Positions 2,173-4,526 of a stretch of 4,533 nucleotides of DNA are shown one piece after another (the first letter of the stretch is position 1; every line of letters begins with the position of its first letter). Below the pieces are notes generated by a model. That model did no database searches and was not told where the DNA came from. It was given only the letters and a program-made list of their open reading frames with translations. The position numbers and the translations under genes were made by a program. The stretch comes from a virus. Its lineage: Duplodnaviria > Heunggongvirae > Uroviricota > Caudoviricetes. The stretch lies in IMG/VR virus record IMGVR_UViG_2778261182_000006. One strand, 5' to 3'.

Positions 2173-2574
2173 ATGATGAACGCCCTAGAAGTATCTATGT
2201 ACAGAATCAGCAAGCTTCTTCAGGAAACTGGATGGAGCCAGGCTGAGCTTGCCCGTAGAATTGGTGTGACACAACAAACTGTTCAACAATGGGCCAGCGG
2301 TAAGGCCACCCCTAAAGCCTCAAGTTTGGATAAACTGGTTGAGGTTACAGGGCATCCATTGCATTGGTTTTTATTGCCTCCTGAAGAAGGGGAGCAAATT
2401 TTCACCCCTGACACGATGAAAATTGGTCCTCGCCAACGCGAACTGCTCCAGGCTTTTAGTGCGTTTCCTGAGGAAGACCAAGAAAAAATGCTTCAAGAAA
2501 TCAAAGACAAGAAAAAATCAATGGAAGAAACCATTGCCCGGTGGTTGGCGGCGCAAAAAAGCCGCCGGGCGTAA
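2173..2574 (+). CDS. paaR2: XRE-family HTH transcriptional regulator, CI/DicA-like; regulator of the three-component TA operon and likely prophage immunity repressor
   Basis: 133-aa ORF with an HTH (SQAELARRIGVTQQTVQQWASG) and a C-terminal region typical of the dimerisation part of DicA-type repressors. No Shine-Dalgarno upstream. First gene of an operon with the antitoxin and ParE genes. Confidence 0.8.
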   Translation: MMNALEVSMYRISKLLQETGWSQAELARRIGVTQQTVQQWASGKATPKASSLDKLVEVTGHPLHWFLLPPEEGEQIFTPDTMKIGPRQRELLQAFSAFPEEDQEKMLQEIKDKKKSMEETIARWLAAQKSRRA

Positions 2575-2604
2575 CCACTACTGTACAAAAAGAGGAGTTA
2601 TGCC

Positions 2605-2796
2605 ATGAGTACAGCCCTTTCTCCGATAGTTTCAGAATTCGAAACTACCGAACAAGAAAACAGTTACAACGAATGGCTGCGCGCTAAAGTGGCGTCAAGC
2701 CTTGCAGACCCTCGCCCCGCAATTCCACATGACGAGGTAATGGCTGAAATGGAAAATCTTATTGCTCAAATTGCTGTAACTAACAGGAGCGAGTAA
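2605..2796 (+). CDS. paaA2: Small antitoxin of a ParE-family toxin (PaaA2-like)
   Basis: 63-aa acidic ORF (MSTALSPIVSEFETTEQENSYNEWLRAKVASSLADPRPAIPHDEVMAEMENLIAQ...) with GAGGAG about 7 nt upstream of the ATG. Its stop overlaps the toxin start (TAATG at 2794-2798). Size and position match the PaaA2 antitoxin as I recall it. Confidence 0.8.
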   Translation: MSTALSPIVSEFETTEQENSYNEWLRAKVASSLADPRPAIPHDEVMAEMENLIAQIAVTNRSE

Positions 2797-3083
2797 TGTT
2801 ACCCATTTTATGGCTACCATCTGCTCGCGATGATTTGCGTCAGATCGTAGCCTATATTGCTAAGGAAAATATTCCTGCAGCACGCAGACTAAAAATACGT
2901 ATTGAAACGTCTGTTTTAGCCCTCTCTGAGCACCCATATCTATATCCGCCAAGTGATCGAGTATCCGGTTTGCGGGAAATTGTGGTTCACCCTAATTATA
3001 TCGTTTTGTACCGAGTAGCAACTTCAAGCATTGAAATTGCAAATATTGTGCATGCCCGCCGACAATTTCCCTTCTCTATCTGA
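2796..3083 (+). CDS. parE2: Type II toxin, RelE/ParE superfamily (ParE-like)
   Basis: 95-aa ORF (MLPILWLPSARDDLRQIVAYIAKENIPAARRLKIRIE...HPYLYPPSDRVSGLREIVVHPNYIVLYRV...) of typical ParE size and pattern. AGGAG (2785-2789) precedes it, with translational coupling to the antitoxin; a terminator follows. Confidence 0.85.
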   Translation: MLPILWLPSARDDLRQIVAYIAKENIPAARRLKIRIETSVLALSEHPYLYPPSDRVSGLREIVVHPNYIVLYRVATSSIEIANIVHARRQFPFSI

Positions 3084-3099: not shown

Positions 3100-3125
3100 A
3101 CTCCCTCATTCGAGGGAGTTTTTTT
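3100..3125 (+). terminator. Rho-independent terminator ending the regulator-antitoxin-toxin operon
   Basis: Seen directly: stem ACTCCCTC (3100-3107), loop ATTC (3108-3111), stem GAGGGAGT (3112-3119), overlapping a run of 7 T (3119-3125), 17 nt after the parE stop. Confidence 0.75.
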
Positions 3126-3135
3126 GCTCAAAGCC

Positions 3136-3179
3136 ACAATTAAAAACTGTTGACACAAAACAGTTTTTAATTGTAGATT
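3136..3179 (+). promoter_or_regulatory. pL/dicBp-like early promoter embedded in a 39-bp perfect palindromic operator
   Basis: Seen directly: ACAATTAAAAACTGTT (3136-3151) and its exact reverse complement AACAGTTTTTAATTGT (3159-3174), separated by GACACAA. Consensus -35 TTGACA at 3150-3155; -10 candidate TAGATT at 3174-3179 (18-bp spacer). The half-site recurs at 2121-2136 in the OR-like region. Confidence 0.55.
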
Positions 3180-3362
3180 GTTTTCACCGCCCCACCCCGT
3201 CCCACAGAACGCAGGGCAATACTTCGAGTTACCAGGCAGTGGTCAGGGGTTAAGTAGCCAGCCCGAGGCGTAAGAACATGACGGCAGGGTTCAACTTTAA
3301 TAACTATGCAGCAGGTTTTTGTTCCGCTACCCCGGCGTTAAGGGGAAACAGAGGATTTCTCA

Positions 3363-3719
3363 GTGGGCGAAGTCAAACATCAGAATGGAAGGCATCCCGG
3401 GATCGGCAAAGAAGCAGCAATGGCGCTTTATATTGACATCAGCGCCATTGCCGGACAGGTAAGAGTTATTAGAGCGGTAACTAAGCAGTATGCGCCTTTA
3501 CTTCAGAAAGTCTCTGGTGAGTGCACCGAAGATATTGTCAACGATTTCGTCATCGAACTGCGAGGACTCATCTTCAGTTACAAGGTGACCACAATTTTTG
3601 CAGATGGCTCCCGCGAAACTGTCAGAGCCCTGCGGCTTAAAGGATGTGTCAAAGACTTCGCCACCACATTCTGGGCAAGAAAACTTGATTGTATTCATAA
3701 CCAATTTCCTCTCGAGTAA
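3363..3719 (+). CDS. Alternative hypothetical protein (118 aa, GTG start), mutually exclusive with the antisense zinc-ribbon ORF
   Basis: Plus-strand ORF in the same direction as the early operon; GAGGA (3351-3355) lies 7 nt upstream of the GTG. It uses only AGA/AGG arginine codons in its unique 5' part and has no recognisable motif. Its openness over 3498-3698 may be an antisense in-register artefact of GNC-rich coding on the other strand. Confidence 0.3.
   Translation: MGEVKHQNGRHPGIGKEAAMALYIDISAIAGQVRVIRAVTKQYAPLLQKVSGECTEDIVNDFVIELRGLIFSYKVTTIFADGSRETVRALRLKGCVKDFATTFWARKLDCIHNQFPLE
3498..3698 (-). CDS. Small 4-Cys zinc-ribbon protein (about 66 aa), unknown function
   Basis: Minus-strand ORF (track 3498-3704, TTG start; more likely ATG at 3696-3698) with C-P-E-C ... 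C-K-N-C spaced about 21 residues apart, a classic zinc-ribbon signature, plus an acidic C-terminus. GAGAGG (revcomp of 3708-3713) lies about 9 nt upstream of the ATG. It conflicts with the plus-strand ORF 3363-3719; at most one is real. Confidence 0.45.
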   Translation of the reverse strand: MNTIKFSCPECGGEVFDTSFKPQGSDSFAGAICKNCGHLVTEDESSQFDDEIVDNIFGALTRDFLK

Positions 3720-3790
3720 CAGACCCCTCAGAGGATACCACCTCGCCTGACGTGGTTAAAAGCAGGCAACGCTAACCACAAGGAGCCGAC

Positions 3791-4006
3791 ATGCAGAAAC
3801 GAGAACCCGTCATCATCGCGCCAGACTATACCGATGATGAAATTTACGAATGGATGTGCGGGAAGATACGCGCCATTAATGACCTGAAGCAGGCTGCTGA
3901 CTATAAAGAGCGCCTCTCTAAAGAACTGGCGTCAGCGGAGCAGGATATTACCACTCTGGCAAAAAGCGCGGCTTTAAACGTTTCGCGAGTGACTGAAAAC
4001 CACTGA
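3791..4006 (+). CDS. Hypothetical small protein (71 aa) of the early rightward operon
   Basis: Strong SD AAGGAG (3780-3785) 5 nt before the ATG. Plausible, non-repetitive protein (MQKREPVIIAPDYTDDEIYEWMCGKIRAINDLKQAADYKERLSKELASAEQDITTLAK...). Occupies the position of the small ydfA/B/C-type genes upstream of DicF in Qin-type prophages. Confidence 0.6.
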   Translation: MQKREPVIIAPDYTDDEIYEWMCGKIRAINDLKQAADYKERLSKELASAEQDITTLAKSAALNVSRVTENH

Positions 4007-4009
4007 CTG

Positions 4010-4396
4010 ATGAGGTTGATGATGGAATTTAAAGATTTACCAATGCCATTCCAGGAAATGGCAGCGAATATAGTTCGTTCCCAACTGGCGACTCTTGACC
4101 TGAGTACCGTAGAAAAAGAAACCATCGATAATATATCCGGTAACGTGCGTCGCGCCTTTATCGGGTTGTACGAAGAGAAGCAACTCTCTGATAACCAGGA
4201 TTTACATGAAAAATACTTCCTGGAATTAATGGACATCATTGATAAGGGATTTGGCTTGTTAATGAAACAGAAAGGGATTCGAATGAACCCCCTTGAAAAT
4301 TACTTCGTAACAAGAAGCATTAATTCCTGTGATTTAAAGCATCCCGCCACAGACGGGAGTGTTACAGTTAGCCATAAGATTTCGATTAATCATTAA
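4010..4396 (+). CDS. Hypothetical protein (128 aa by track; true start may be ATG 4019 or 4022)
   Basis: ORF begins 3 nt after the upstream stop. GAGG (4012-4015) would serve an ATG at 4022 (6-nt spacing). No recognisable motif. Followed by the DicF-like element. Confidence 0.6.
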   Translation: MRLMMEFKDLPMPFQEMAANIVRSQLATLDLSTVEKETIDNISGNVRRAFIGLYEEKQLSDNQDLHEKYFLELMDIIDKGFGLLMKQKGIRMNPLENYFVTRSINSCDLKHPATDGSVTVSHKISINH

Positions 4397-4464: not shown

Positions 4465-4526
4465 TCATGTTGATTAGCACCTTTGGCGGCATCAGTTTTC
4501 ATTGCTGGCTGATGTCCGCCCTTTTT
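4465..4526 (+). ncRNA. dicF: DicF-like small RNA with its intrinsic terminator (5' end is processing-defined and approximate)
   Basis: The segment ...CCTTTGGCGGCATCAGTTTTCATTGCTGGCTGATGTCCGCCCTTTTTAAAGTGA resembles my recollection of E. coli DicF (...GTTTGGCGGTATCAGTTTTACTCCGTGACTGCTCTGCCGCCCTTTTT). Shared blocks are TTTGGCGG-ATCAGTTTT and CCGCCCTTTTT. It lies at the end of an early operon under an operator-controlled promoter, as DicF does in the dicB operon. Confidence 0.5.
4485..4526 (+). terminator. Rho-independent terminator (3' hairpin of the DicF-like RNA)
   Basis: Seen directly: stem GGCGGCATCAG (4485-4495) pairs with CTGATGtCCGCC (4509-4520, one bulged T), 13-nt loop, then a run of 5 T (4522-4526). 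Confidence 0.6.

Follow-up and report, generated by a model that had tools for sequence, protein, structure and literature searches.

Antisense reading frames conserved together in a lambdoid prophage cassette, with proposed expression in alternative prophage states

An antisense ORF pair in the prophage immunity region

We analyzed a window of 4,533 nucleotides from the Caudoviricetes record IMGVR_UViG_2778261182_000006, in which two ORFs on opposite strands share one segment of a CP-933P/Qin-type immunity region downstream of a PL-type promoter. A sequence-only reading had placed a plus-strand ORF at 3363-3719 and a minus-strand ORF at 3498-3698, each with a Shine-Dalgarno (SD) motif, and both were found there; its figure of about 35% G at codon position 1 in both frames was also reproduced (0.34-0.37). 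The two ORFs overlap codon for codon, such that position 1 of a plus codon is position 3 of a minus codon. The features discussed below are as follows.

3150..3179, plus strand: predicted PL-type early promoter, TTGACA-18-TAGATT, 10/12 consensus matches
3186..3362, plus strand: conserved 5' leader of the early-left operon, ending in the SD GAGGA (3351-3355)
3363..3719, plus strand: plus ORF, GTG start, 118 aa, with a conserved core of 99 aa from ATG 3420; PHROG 21318
3415..3453, minus strand: terminator-like hairpin of the putative zinc-ribbon transcript, 13-bp stem and 13-nt loop, then CUUCUUUG
3498..3698, minus strand: putative zinc-ribbon gene of the ECs_2282 family, 66 aa plus stop, with CPEC...CKNC ahead of an acidic C-terminal helix
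3707..3713, minus strand: SD of the zinc-ribbon gene, GAGAGGA, 8 nt before the ATG
3732..3768, minus strand: promoter-like element with an extended -10 TGgTATCCT (3732-3740), a -35-like TTTAAC (3755-3760) and two interleaved inverted repeats

The early promoter lies inside a palindrome (3136-3174, 16-bp arms) that is presumed to be an operator. Its position corresponds to that of PL933P of CP-933P, which has been experimentally found to be repressed approximately 100-fold by PaaR2 and YdaS (PMC8630535). Because the window carries a different repressor allele from CP-933P, we treat 3150-3179 as a predicted promoter. The pair had been described as lying directly downstream of this promoter; in fact, a conserved leader of about 175 nt (3186-3362) separates them. 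Within it, 3327 of 5426 E. coli genomes share positions 3300-3348 at 98-100% identity, and what follows is either ydfA or the plus ORF. The leader has no Rfam match, and it was rejected as a structured RNA, since it folds no better than shuffled sequences (z = +1.25).

The cassette (at least 80% of query 3300-3790) is present in 937 of the 5426 complete E. coli genomes (~17%), including EHEC prophages, and is inherited as a unit. In some contexts it opens the PL operon, and in others it comes after cro in the PR operon. The claim that the minus gene runs antisense to an early PL-type operon held in every context examined, the zinc-ribbon gene being always antisense to the early operon; in one lineage (L094), it follows sieB on the same strand. 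In lambdoid prophages this is the decision point, and the dicF/dicB cell-division inhibitors lie downstream of the pair. Annotation of the locus is split: RefSeq/PGAP gives the minus gene only and GenBank phage records give the plus ORF only, so that every current annotation of these prophages omits one of the two proteins. We found no description of this pair in the literature on ECs2282 and lambdoid antisense ORFs.

Coding and control signals on each strand

The minus ORF starts at an ATG at 3698 (the ORF listing extends the frame to a TTG at 3704), and its protein contains two CxxC pairs, C8-P-E-C11 and C33-K-N-C36, as found in a putative zinc ribbon. Residues 6-61 align with profile positions 1-56 of 60 of NCBIfam NF047912 (ECs_2282 family putative zinc-binding protein; 57.2 bits versus a cutoff of 37, E = 1.1e-15), and PGAP gives the same family name to the identical-length 66-aa homologue WP_001092153.1. 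Homologues at 60-70% identity share 29 invariant columns, including all four Cys; in 10 sequences, C8, C11, C33, and C36 are invariant or nearly so, and L111 keeps them as CQKC...CSNC. The zinc-ribbon ORF is intact in L111, opposite the most distant plus homologue, and equivalent SDs (AAGGAGG or AAGAAGGA) precede it in all distant lineages. The family match above cutoff, the retention of four Cys, and a level of conservation that exceeds the plus protein's in 35 of 36 lineage comparisons all support the minus gene, earlier raised as a possibility, as a real one. Apart from NF047912, searches of Pfam, NCBIfam, PADLOC, and PDB sequences with this protein returned just generic zinc-ribbon noise. 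A scan of genome contigs with the zinc-ribbon alignment gave nothing useful (two spurious matches, in a Bacteroidota MAG and an archaeal MAG), and a scan of metagenomes and scans of viral contigs with P0038, P0039, and the zinc-ribbon protein of L111 gave no matches. We rejected a Lar/Ral-type restriction alleviation protein (TIGR03655) as its identity, because the score (15.6 bits, E = 0.015) is below the cutoff of 39.6 and the likeness is limited to the CxxC pairs. Its AF2 model has low confidence (pLDDT 55.0) and is therefore too poor for a structure search.

On the plus strand, the SD GAGGA lies 7 nt before GTG 3363, and residues 20-118 match PHROG 21318 over its full length (E = 1.9e-66, profile positions 1-99 of 99); because PHROGs are built from called ORFs, this membership alone is no proof of coding. 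GTG 3363 was rejected as a family-wide start: the 18 codons at 3366-3419 have no periodicity (12/9/10 variable sites), and distant homology begins at 3420, upstream of which distant lineages cannot be aligned (~0.68 differences per site). Thus, the ORF from GTG 3363 stands, but the start conserved in the family is ATG 3420 (99 aa). GTG 3363 may be the start used in this clade, having a better SD here than ATG 3420; the SD before ATG 3420 is weak in this window, and strong SDs precede the plus start in distant lineages with non-homologous flanks. The plus-only stretch 3423-3497 is stop-free solely in the plus frame in all 42 sequences, its substitution events fall 40/29/73 by codon position (p = 1.5e-5), and its dN/dS of 0.27 (dS 1.11) is the lowest among the six frames. 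Codons 12-26, which separate the hairpin from the zinc-ribbon stop, show the same bias on their own (24/21/49, p = 5e-4), and the sole indel in the plus-only stretch is one whole codon.

AF2 predicts a folded alpha/beta plus protein (mean pLDDT 75.7, pTM 0.56). Searches of Pfam and NCBIfam with it returned no match, those of PADLOC and PDB sequences offered no hint of function, and we found no relatives or structural neighbors outside the cassette. The statement that neither protein belongs to a characterized family is roughly correct, yet both fall in named, uncharacterized families, NF047912 and phrog_21318. The idea of an unrecognized first gene in the position of lambda N is strengthened by coding signal outside as well as inside the overlap, which points to a real promoter-proximal gene. 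A lambda N-type antiterminator was rejected as its identity: the N-terminus MALYIDISAIAGQ contains no arginine-rich motif, the protein is predicted to be folded, and the leader has no obvious nut element or Rfam match.

The minus gene is flanked by candidate control signals. Upstream, the inverted repeats of the promoter-like element are ACCAC-N10-GTGGT and GCCTG-N13-CAGGC. Four deep lineages conserve the element ahead of the zinc-ribbon gene, and L111 retains both repeats via compensatory changes. The same 37-bp element recurs in phage HannyBb, E. coli NRG857C, and a Salmonella P22-like phage, where it lies 35-66 nt ahead of unrelated minus-strand ORFs. TGgTATCCT and TTTAAC are spaced by 17 nt in seven of eight aligned copies, the Salmonella copy having no -10; the consensus scan, whose thresholds need a better -35, was silent here. 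From the consensus-like motif and its comparative position, we infer promoter activity for 3732-3768. Downstream, a 45-nt spacer separates the zinc-ribbon ORF from the hairpin (fold z = -2.55), one arm of which contains the plus ATG 3420. Thirteen lineages conserve its inner 8 bp; one pair is compensatory (CG in 5, UA in 5) and another is G.U in 9 of 13, a pairing possible on the minus strand only. The covariation score is 0.222 versus 0.152 for shuffles, and none of 500 shuffles reaches 0.222. As a candidate intrinsic terminator, it has a stable stem, a loop of 13 nt, and an interrupted U-tract (CUUCUUUG), and it is absent from the consensus-scan list.

Purifying selection on both frames of the overlap

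Long "shadow" ORFs arise most readily in the in-register antisense frame. The sequence-only reading had regarded the two ORFs as mutually exclusive and proposed that stops in related prophages would show which one is an artefact. When applied to related prophages, this stop test does not discriminate between them, as both ORFs are open in every distant lineage whose DNA was compared; with neither ORF resembling an artefact, the either/or framing is unsupported. Across about 15 lineages (Escherichia, Citrobacter, Klebsiella, Enterobacter, and metagenomes), the overlap aligns without gaps, the two frames remain open, and each retains its SD, down to protein identities of 45%/41%. Of the distant lineages located via the zinc-ribbon protein, 5/5 have an open plus frame; of those located via the plus protein, 7/7 have an open zinc-ribbon frame. 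In the P0038/P0043 lineage, the zinc-ribbon motif VTEDESSQFD cannot survive given its plus sequence. Within E. coli, two nonsense alleles, both recent events, interrupt the minus ORF in 20 of 109 loci, and a single 2-nt frameshift allele, also recent, breaks both frames, giving totals of 21/109 interrupted for the minus and 1/109 for the plus ORF. A natural allele at codon 14 (GAA>TAA) truncates the zinc-ribbon protein and changes the plus protein merely by Phe80Leu.

Substitutions in the overlap rank by position in the order expected of the zinc-ribbon frame (3 > 1 > 2 = 0.31/0.23/0.10). Synonymous divergence, 1.11 in the plus-only part, is lower in the overlap, at 0.73 for the zinc-ribbon frame and 0.41 for the plus frame. 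OLGenie-style ratios have bootstrap intervals below 1 (dNN/dSN 0.34 [0.21-0.52]; dNN/dNS 0.19 [0.11-0.30]), and dSN (0.161) is lower than dNS (0.289). These ratios are not trusted alone, because the NN class here consists mostly of second codon positions and could lower dNN/dSN without selection on a second frame; therefore, a cross-frame BLOSUM test with 11 control ORFs was added. The 110 events that are synonymous in the zinc-ribbon frame have a mean plus-frame BLOSUM62 score of 1.29 versus 0.31 +/- 0.19 expected (z = 5.0; z = 3.3 when each distinct variant is counted once), and for the 71 plus-synonymous events, the zinc-ribbon-frame score is 1.31 versus 0.22 expected (z = 4.9). The 11 control ORFs give z values of -1.8 to 2.2. 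With 15 representative lineages, z is 4.1 and 3.9, and with ascertainment-controlled subsets, it is 3.58 and 2.57. Synonymous events that create a stop number 0 versus 4.9 expected among 15 lineages (P = 0.007; 3.8-5.6 expected across data sets), a test that is low-powered alone because few Leu and Ser codons are at risk. The data are modest (about 15 independent lineages and 66 overlapping codons), and events were counted by parsimony on a neighbor-joining tree of recombining phage DNA. Taken on this comparative footing, the tests show both frames to be under purifying selection across enterobacterial phages, the constraint on the plus frame being the weaker one because the zinc-ribbon protein is better conserved in 35/36 pairs. 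We rejected the plus ORF as a shadow ORF on the basis of codon periodicity outside the overlap and the excess of conservative replacements inside it.

Explanations that need only one coding frame were weighed against these results. If the minus zinc-ribbon gene alone were real, the plus ORF would be its shadow, which would stay open because in-register antisense stops arise only from TTA, CTA, and TCA codons, and the plus-only conservation would stem from the zinc-ribbon gene's 3' UTR and terminator. We consider this unlikely, though it is the strongest of the alternatives. It agrees with the RefSeq/PGAP annotation, the better conservation of the zinc-ribbon protein (with dSN < dNS), the location of the hairpin within the plus-only region, the weak SD at ATG 3420 in this window, and the isolation of the plus protein beyond the cassette. 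However, a 3' UTR should not yield a third-position bias in one frame, and this bias is present even in the 45 nt between hairpin and stop; nor would it account for the whole-codon size of the lone plus-only indel, the strong plus SDs in non-homologous flanks, the reduced zinc-ribbon-frame synonymous divergence in the overlap, the absence of stop-creating events, or the preference of zinc-ribbon-synonymous changes for conservative plus replacements (z = 3.6-5.0), which the controls do not show. The converse, that only the plus ORF is real as the first early gene and the zinc-ribbon frame is a chance antisense frame, appears very improbable. GenBank phage records annotate the plus ORF alone, its frame is interrupted far less often (1 versus 21 of 109 loci), and its AF2 confidence is higher (75.7 versus 55.0), but the nonsense alleles represent just two recent E. 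coli events. Against it also stand the four Cys with 25 further invariant columns at 60-70% identity, the curated NCBIfam match above cutoff, a substitution order that fits the zinc-ribbon frame, conservative changes in that frame among plus-synonymous events (z = 3.9-4.9), the zinc-ribbon SD kept in all lineages, and hairpin G.U pairs that form on the minus strand alone.

It might also be argued that the principal role of the minus unit is to regulate the early operon through a cis-antisense RNA, comparable to lambda OOP or P22 sar, and that apparent dual coding is nucleotide-level constraint laid over one real frame. Its orientation, always antisense to the early operon and promoter-proximal, the conserved hairpin, and long near-invariant nucleotide stretches (such as CTCATCTTCAGTTACAA.GTGACCACA in six lineages) would fit this idea. 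However, nucleotide constraint does not predict amino-acid-conservative changes in both frames, nor kept Cys codons, kept SDs, and stop avoidance in both frames, and cis complementarity is automatic and requires no sequence conservation. We regard this explanation as doubtful, somewhat more so than a minus-only gene. Dual coding is preferred: the segment 3420-3719 is probably a compact mobile cassette with two real protein-coding genes on opposite strands, best modeled with alternative-state expression.

A proposed two-state model and comparison with known systems

We propose a nested antisense gene pair whose members are expressed in alternative prophage states, a reading that, from the comparative evidence, we think has the better chance of being right. 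The minus strand would form a complete small transcription unit nested in the plus ORF (promoter-like element, SD, 66-codon ORF, spacer, and hairpin). Because the early promoter would be silent in a repressed prophage, the minus unit alone is proposed to be transcribed there, and the zinc-ribbon protein would be a lysogen-state ("moron"-type) product. Upon derepression, strong early transcription would run head-on through the cassette, the plus protein would be made, and the zinc-ribbon gene would be silenced by promoter occlusion, polymerase collision, and about 300 nt of fully complementary RNA. In the reverse direction, minus transcription might damp leaky early transcripts toward dicF/dicB-type toxic genes. 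Such collision or exclusion, already raised in the sequence-only reading, is plausible.

A bolder and distinctly more tentative extension is that the cassette is a two-state coding device: one stretch of about 200 bp would give a zinc-ribbon protein when repressed and an opposite-strand protein once the early promoter fires, enforced by head-on transcription and RNA complementarity, with products that are perhaps antagonistic and a fixed antisense orientation that would be a selected feature. If so, the lysogen-state protein might guard against or neutralize the early protein or downstream DicF/DicB-type toxic functions, and the antisense orientation beside PL or PR in every lineage would keep both frames together. 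A strand-switching cassette upstream of dicF/dicB could affect prophage stability, induction, or exclusion. Long antisense overlapping genes in bacteria and phages are rare and disputed, and annotation pipelines forbid them. This locus is unusually suited to settle the dispute, being short, common in E. coli, conserved in both frames, and provided with a natural zinc-ribbon knockout allele.

Several known systems resemble parts of the proposed arrangement. Lambdoid "morons", such as sieB, rexAB, and bor (Hendrix/Juhala), are autonomous promoter-gene-terminator cassettes expressed from a repressed prophage. The zinc-ribbon unit is moron-like in having its own promoter-like element, SD, ORF, and hairpin, and the 37-bp element is also found ahead of other small minus-strand ORFs that occupy the same slot; however, morons sit between genes rather than inside a conserved ORF of the opposite strand, and are mostly co-directional with the flanking operon. 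Counter-transcription is also familiar in temperate phages (lambda OOP versus cII and PaQ versus Q, P22 sar versus ant, and pR/pL interference in 186). There, as proposed here, a counter-transcript opposes an early or lytic transcript near the switch, which allows mutually exclusive expression and RNase III-dependent decay, but those are short non-coding RNAs or face-to-face promoters, whereas the putative counter-transcript here encodes a conserved protein and spans nearly the whole opposing ORF. Lambda N and HK022 Nun occupy the first position after PL. The plus gene shares this promoter-proximal slot with N, and the zinc-ribbon protein could, like Nun, be lysogen-expressed from it. Unlike N, the plus protein is predicted to be folded rather than disordered, and has neither an arginine-rich motif nor a Pfam/NCBIfam match; Nun is co-directional with PL and unrelated in sequence.

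Antisense ORFs kept open by selection have been described for the narnavirus reverse ORF and for HIV-1 asp/env, the latter by overlapping-gene-aware dN/dS (PMC8316113, PMC7531306). The likeness lies in long ORFs on both strands being kept open; those are eukaryotic RNA viruses and retroviruses, and the narnavirus reverse ORF is genome-wide, with debated protein-level constraint. Closer in host are the antisense pairs proposed in E. coli O157:H7, namely ano/ECs2385, nog1/citC, laoB, pop/ompA, and oloz0137/4542/5029, the three oloz genes being explicitly outside phage regions (PMC5960689, PMC9927249). They resemble the present pair in comprising a short ORF embedded antisense with its own promoter, SD, and terminator, translation of both partners being proposed. 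They are supported by RNA-seq, Ribo-seq, and phenotypes in one strain, and are mostly young, taxonomically restricted ORFs in well-known "mother" genes (PMC5960689, PMC9927249). In contrast, the case made here is comparative, with purifying selection on both frames down to ~41-45% protein identity seen in sequence comparison. No known gene is involved as a partner; the two frames overlap totally, in exact register, and travel together as one cassette.

The early-left region and its opposing reading frames

The window corresponds to the immunity/early-left region of an E. coli lambdoid prophage of the Qin/CP-933P type.

Features of the region (coordinates, strand, description)
411-1358, minus, O-like replication gene
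1382-1807, minus, YdaT/CII-like gene
1791-2063, minus, YdaS/Cro-like gene
2173-2574, plus, HTH repressor
2605-3083, plus, PaaA2/ParE toxin-antitoxin pair
3100-3119, plus, terminator
3150-3179, plus, predicted promoter TTGACA-18-TAGATT, within a palindrome with 16-bp arms
3186-3362, plus, 5' leader of the early-left operon (~175 nt), between the promoter and the ORF pair
3732-3768, minus, 37-bp element with an extended -10 (TGgTATCCT) and a weak -35 at 17 nt, 5' of the zinc-ribbon Shine-Dalgarno (SD) motif
3791-4006, plus, ydfC, after the ORF pair
4010-4396, plus, phrog_6937 gene
4474-4521, plus, DicF-like RNA (full-length match to Rfam RF00039, E = 5.5e-6; 38.5 bits, below the gathering score of 48)

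The DicF-like RNA occupies the position expected in a dicB-type operon, and in related phages an annotated minus-strand ORF overlaps this region (Evi, locus L001, 3727-3960). Positions 3300-3348 of the leader show 98-100% identity in 3327 of 5426 complete E. coli genomes, and the leader is conserved across different repressors and operators, whether ydfA or the plus ORF comes first. The leader (3186-3362) has no Rfam match, and its predicted fold does not surpass that of shuffled sequences (z = +1.25); its role might be that of a nut- or put-like site or of a translational leader.

The two ORFs proposed from the sequence alone were recovered as described, namely a plus ORF at 3363-3719 (GTG start, 118 aa, GAGGA 7 nt before the start) and a minus, zinc-ribbon ORF at 3498-3698 (ATG start, 66 aa, CPEC and CKNC motifs, GAGAGGA 8 nt before the start), which overlap in exact antisense codon register and have similar codon statistics (position-1 G of 0.34-0.37 in both frames). 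Their annotation is in conflict: three GenBank phage records call the plus ORF only, whereas RefSeq/PGAP calls the minus ORF only, as 'ECs_2282 family putative zinc-binding protein'. The minus ORF scores 57.2 bits against NCBIfam NF047912 (cutoff 37) and residues 20-118 of the plus ORF match PHROG 21318; as the sequence-only reading held, neither protein can be assigned to a characterised family, both families being catalogued as uncharacterised (NF047912, phrog_21318). No match was found for the plus protein in Pfam, NCBIfam, PADLOC, PDB or by fold, and the minus protein showed only generic zinc-ribbon similarity. An N-like identity of the plus protein was rejected, as was Lar-family membership of the zinc-ribbon protein (15.6 bits; cutoff 39.6). 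AF2 predicts a moderately confident alpha/beta fold for the plus protein (pLDDT 75.7, pTM 0.56, from 12 sequences only); the predicted model of the zinc-ribbon protein is poor (pLDDT 55), which would be no surprise for a small fold that depends on metal and has a shallow alignment.

The module (3300-3790, at least 80% covered) is present in 937 of 5426 complete E. coli genomes. Across lineages, the cassette containing both ORFs (3420-3719) occupies either the first gene position behind PL, beside the repressor, or a position after cro in the PR operon (loci L089, L090, and L108). The minus gene, if real, had been expected to run against the early operon, and it is indeed antisense, with the plus ORF co-directional, in every context seen. 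Because the same leader precedes ydfA-ydfB in Qin-type prophages, the cassette is regarded as an alternative occupant of this slot.

Conservation and selection in both frames

Protein searches identified zinc-ribbon homologues with 60-70% identity in Citrobacter, Klebsiella, and Enterobacter, and plus-ORF homologues down to ~60% identity. A profile search run exhaustively over 1.84 billion cluster representatives yielded just nine members of the plus family, of which two (P0038 and P0039) are more distant. Stops in one frame of related prophages had been suggested as a way of exposing an artefact, but this criterion did not separate the two ORFs. When the DNA of 109 loci was compared, both frames were open in distant lineages: the plus frame in 5/5 found via the zinc-ribbon protein, and the zinc-ribbon frame in 7/7 found via the plus protein. 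The 66-codon overlap aligns without gaps in every lineage, and the whole region bounded by the two start codons is gapless in all but the most distant one, L111 (61% nucleotide, 45% zinc-ribbon protein, and 41% plus protein identity to the window), where a single whole codon is inserted into the plus-only part. Frame interruptions among the 109 loci are recent E. coli alleles only, comprising GAA to TAA at zinc-ribbon codon 14 (3657-3659) in 19 of 80 IMG/VR loci (L071 group), a second zinc-ribbon nonsense allele in one further locus, and one 2-nt frameshift that disrupts both frames. On the opposite strand the codon-14 change is only Phe80Leu in the plus protein, making this allele a ready-made natural knock-out of one strand.

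The zinc-ribbon frame is real and is the more constrained of the two. Its alignment has 29 invariant columns, all four Cys among them, an SD motif precedes the gene in every lineage, and its protein identity exceeds that of the plus protein in 35 of 36 lineage pairs. Per-site divergence in the overlap follows the order of this frame (0.31, 0.23, and 0.10 at its third, first, and second codon positions), and the wobble class is well under the 0.49 of the plus-only stretch. An OLGenie-style calculation for the overlap in the sas13 frame (PMC7531306) gave dNN of 0.055, dNS of 0.289, and dSN of 0.161, with dSN below dNS (ratio interval 1.1-3.0); the resulting dNN/dSN of 0.34 (0.21-0.52) and dNN/dNS of 0.19 (0.11-0.30) were not used as the sole basis because NN sites are mostly second codon positions.

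For the plus frame, the 25 plus-only codons (3423-3497) are informative: plus is the sole stop-free frame of six in 42/42 unique sequences, the first, second, and third codon positions account for 40/29/73 parsimony events (chi-square p = 1.5e-5), and dN/dS is 0.27, the lowest of six frames (dS 1.11). A conserved hairpin occupies part of this stretch; in the 15 codons from the hairpin to the zinc-ribbon stop the events are still distributed 24/21/49 (p = 5e-4). Homology among distant lineages starts at the plus start codon, 5' of which there are ~0.68 differences per site (unalignable), and GGAGG, AGGAG or GAGGTG is found there at proper spacing in flanks that are otherwise unrelated.

Cross-frame tests examined whether changes synonymous in one frame are random for the other, with transition/transversion-matched random synonymous mutations as the expectation. 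The 110 zinc-ribbon-synonymous events, parsimony counts on recombining sequences from a modest number of independent lineages, had a mean plus-frame BLOSUM62 score of 1.29 vs the expected 0.31 +/- 0.19 (z = 5.0, or 3.3 with each distinct variant counted once), and plus-synonymous changes scored in the zinc-ribbon frame gave z = 4.9. The in-register antisense frame is where shadow ORFs arise most readily. Eleven control ORFs of the same loci, each compared with its own in-register antisense frame, gave z values from -1.8 to 2.2. The outcome persisted when L111 was included and when 15 representative lineages were used (z = 4.1 and 3.9), among which 0 stop-creating events were observed vs 4.9 expected (P = 0.007), and tests restricted to loci found via the other protein gave z = 3.58 and 2.57. 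The nucleotides of CTCATCTTCAGTTACAA.GTGACCACA, read as LIFSY.VTT on the plus and as CGH.VTEDE on the minus strand, are nearly invariant in six lineages in which 25-30% of positions differ elsewhere, and the few doubly synonymous sites (CTG/TTG, CGA/AGA) are free to vary. The sequence-only reading of a mutually exclusive pair, in which one ORF is an artefact, does not agree with these comparative tests, in which both frames are open and under selection. The reading best supported by the alignments is that two real genes are nested in antisense orientation, and dual coding is probable.

The minus-strand unit and its candidate control elements

The hairpin lies ~45 nt 3' of the zinc-ribbon stop, where 3415-3427 pairs with 3441-3453 around a 13-nt loop (fold z-score of 3415-3453, -2.55). 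Its inner 8 bp are kept in 13 lineages, with one pair alternating between C-G (five lineages) and U-A (five) and another being G.U in 9/13 and able to pair in minus-strand RNA only; covariation is above all 500 shuffles. The U-rich run that follows is complementary to the stretch separating SD and AUG in the plus gene, whose family-conserved ATG (3420) is located in one stem arm. This hairpin is an unproven candidate terminator of the zinc-ribbon unit.

Within the 37-bp element, two inverted repeats (GCCTG-N13-CAGGC and ACCAC-N10-GTGGT) are interleaved and mutually exclusive. The element is conserved in four deep lineages, with both repeats maintained via compensatory changes in L111. Copies outside the window lie at 2001-2037 of L109, 2001-2037 of L115, 1501-1537 of L116, and about 4335-4375 of L111. 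A consensus promoter scan of the window did not report this site. The copies in phage HannyBb, E. coli NRG857C, and a Salmonella P22-like phage (the last lacking the -10) have no zinc-ribbon gene beside them; they lie 35-66 nt 5' of different, unrelated minus-strand ORFs, whose product is a multi-pass membrane protein of 91-106 aa or a protein of 93 aa. We infer that it is a portable promoter/control region serving 'moron' genes in antisense orientation; both a promoter combined with an operator and an RNA structure, formed from one or the other strand, are conceivable.

A second sense/antisense conflict exists at the same genomic slot in HannyBb (L109), where an annotated 205-aa plus CDS (1367-1984) is opposed by the 106-aa multi-pass membrane ORF (1646-1966, minus) downstream of the element; the equivalent 91-aa ORF of NRG857C (L115; 1691-1966, minus) has no annotation. 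In an Enterobacter hormaechei prophage (L094), the zinc-ribbon gene (3100-3300) is directly 3' of the superinfection exclusion gene sieB (2323-2823) on the same strand, which could indicate that it is co-expressed with an exclusion gene of the lysogenic state.

Proposed operation and comparison with known systems

The anatomy of the cassette, together with convergent transcription as known from temperate phages (lambda OOP and PaQ, P22 sar, and 186 pR/pL), suggests how the pair might operate. While the early promoter is repressed, the minus unit alone would be transcribed and the zinc-ribbon protein would be a product of the lysogenic state. Upon derepression, head-on transcription and ~300 nt of complementary RNA might silence the minus unit while the plus protein is made. 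Conversely, minus-strand transcription may buffer leaky early transcription toward DicF/DicB-type toxic functions.

The repressor-PaaA2-ParE module (2173-3083) resembles paaR2-paaA2-parE2 of CP-933P. The equivalent promoter of that closely related prophage, PL933P, is repressed ~100-fold by PaaR2 and YdaS, as determined experimentally (PMC8630535). However, its repressor is a different allele (123 aa in the O111/O157 loci vs 133 aa in the window) and its operator palindrome differs from that of the window (3136-3174); the immunity type is different and the architecture is shared. Antisense overlapping genes are a known but contested kind (PMC5960689, PMC9927249, PMC8850804). We found no report in the searchable literature of NF047912 and phrog_21318 pairing on opposite strands, and the apparent novelty is that the two families form opposite strands of one cassette, both under selection, at a prophage switch.
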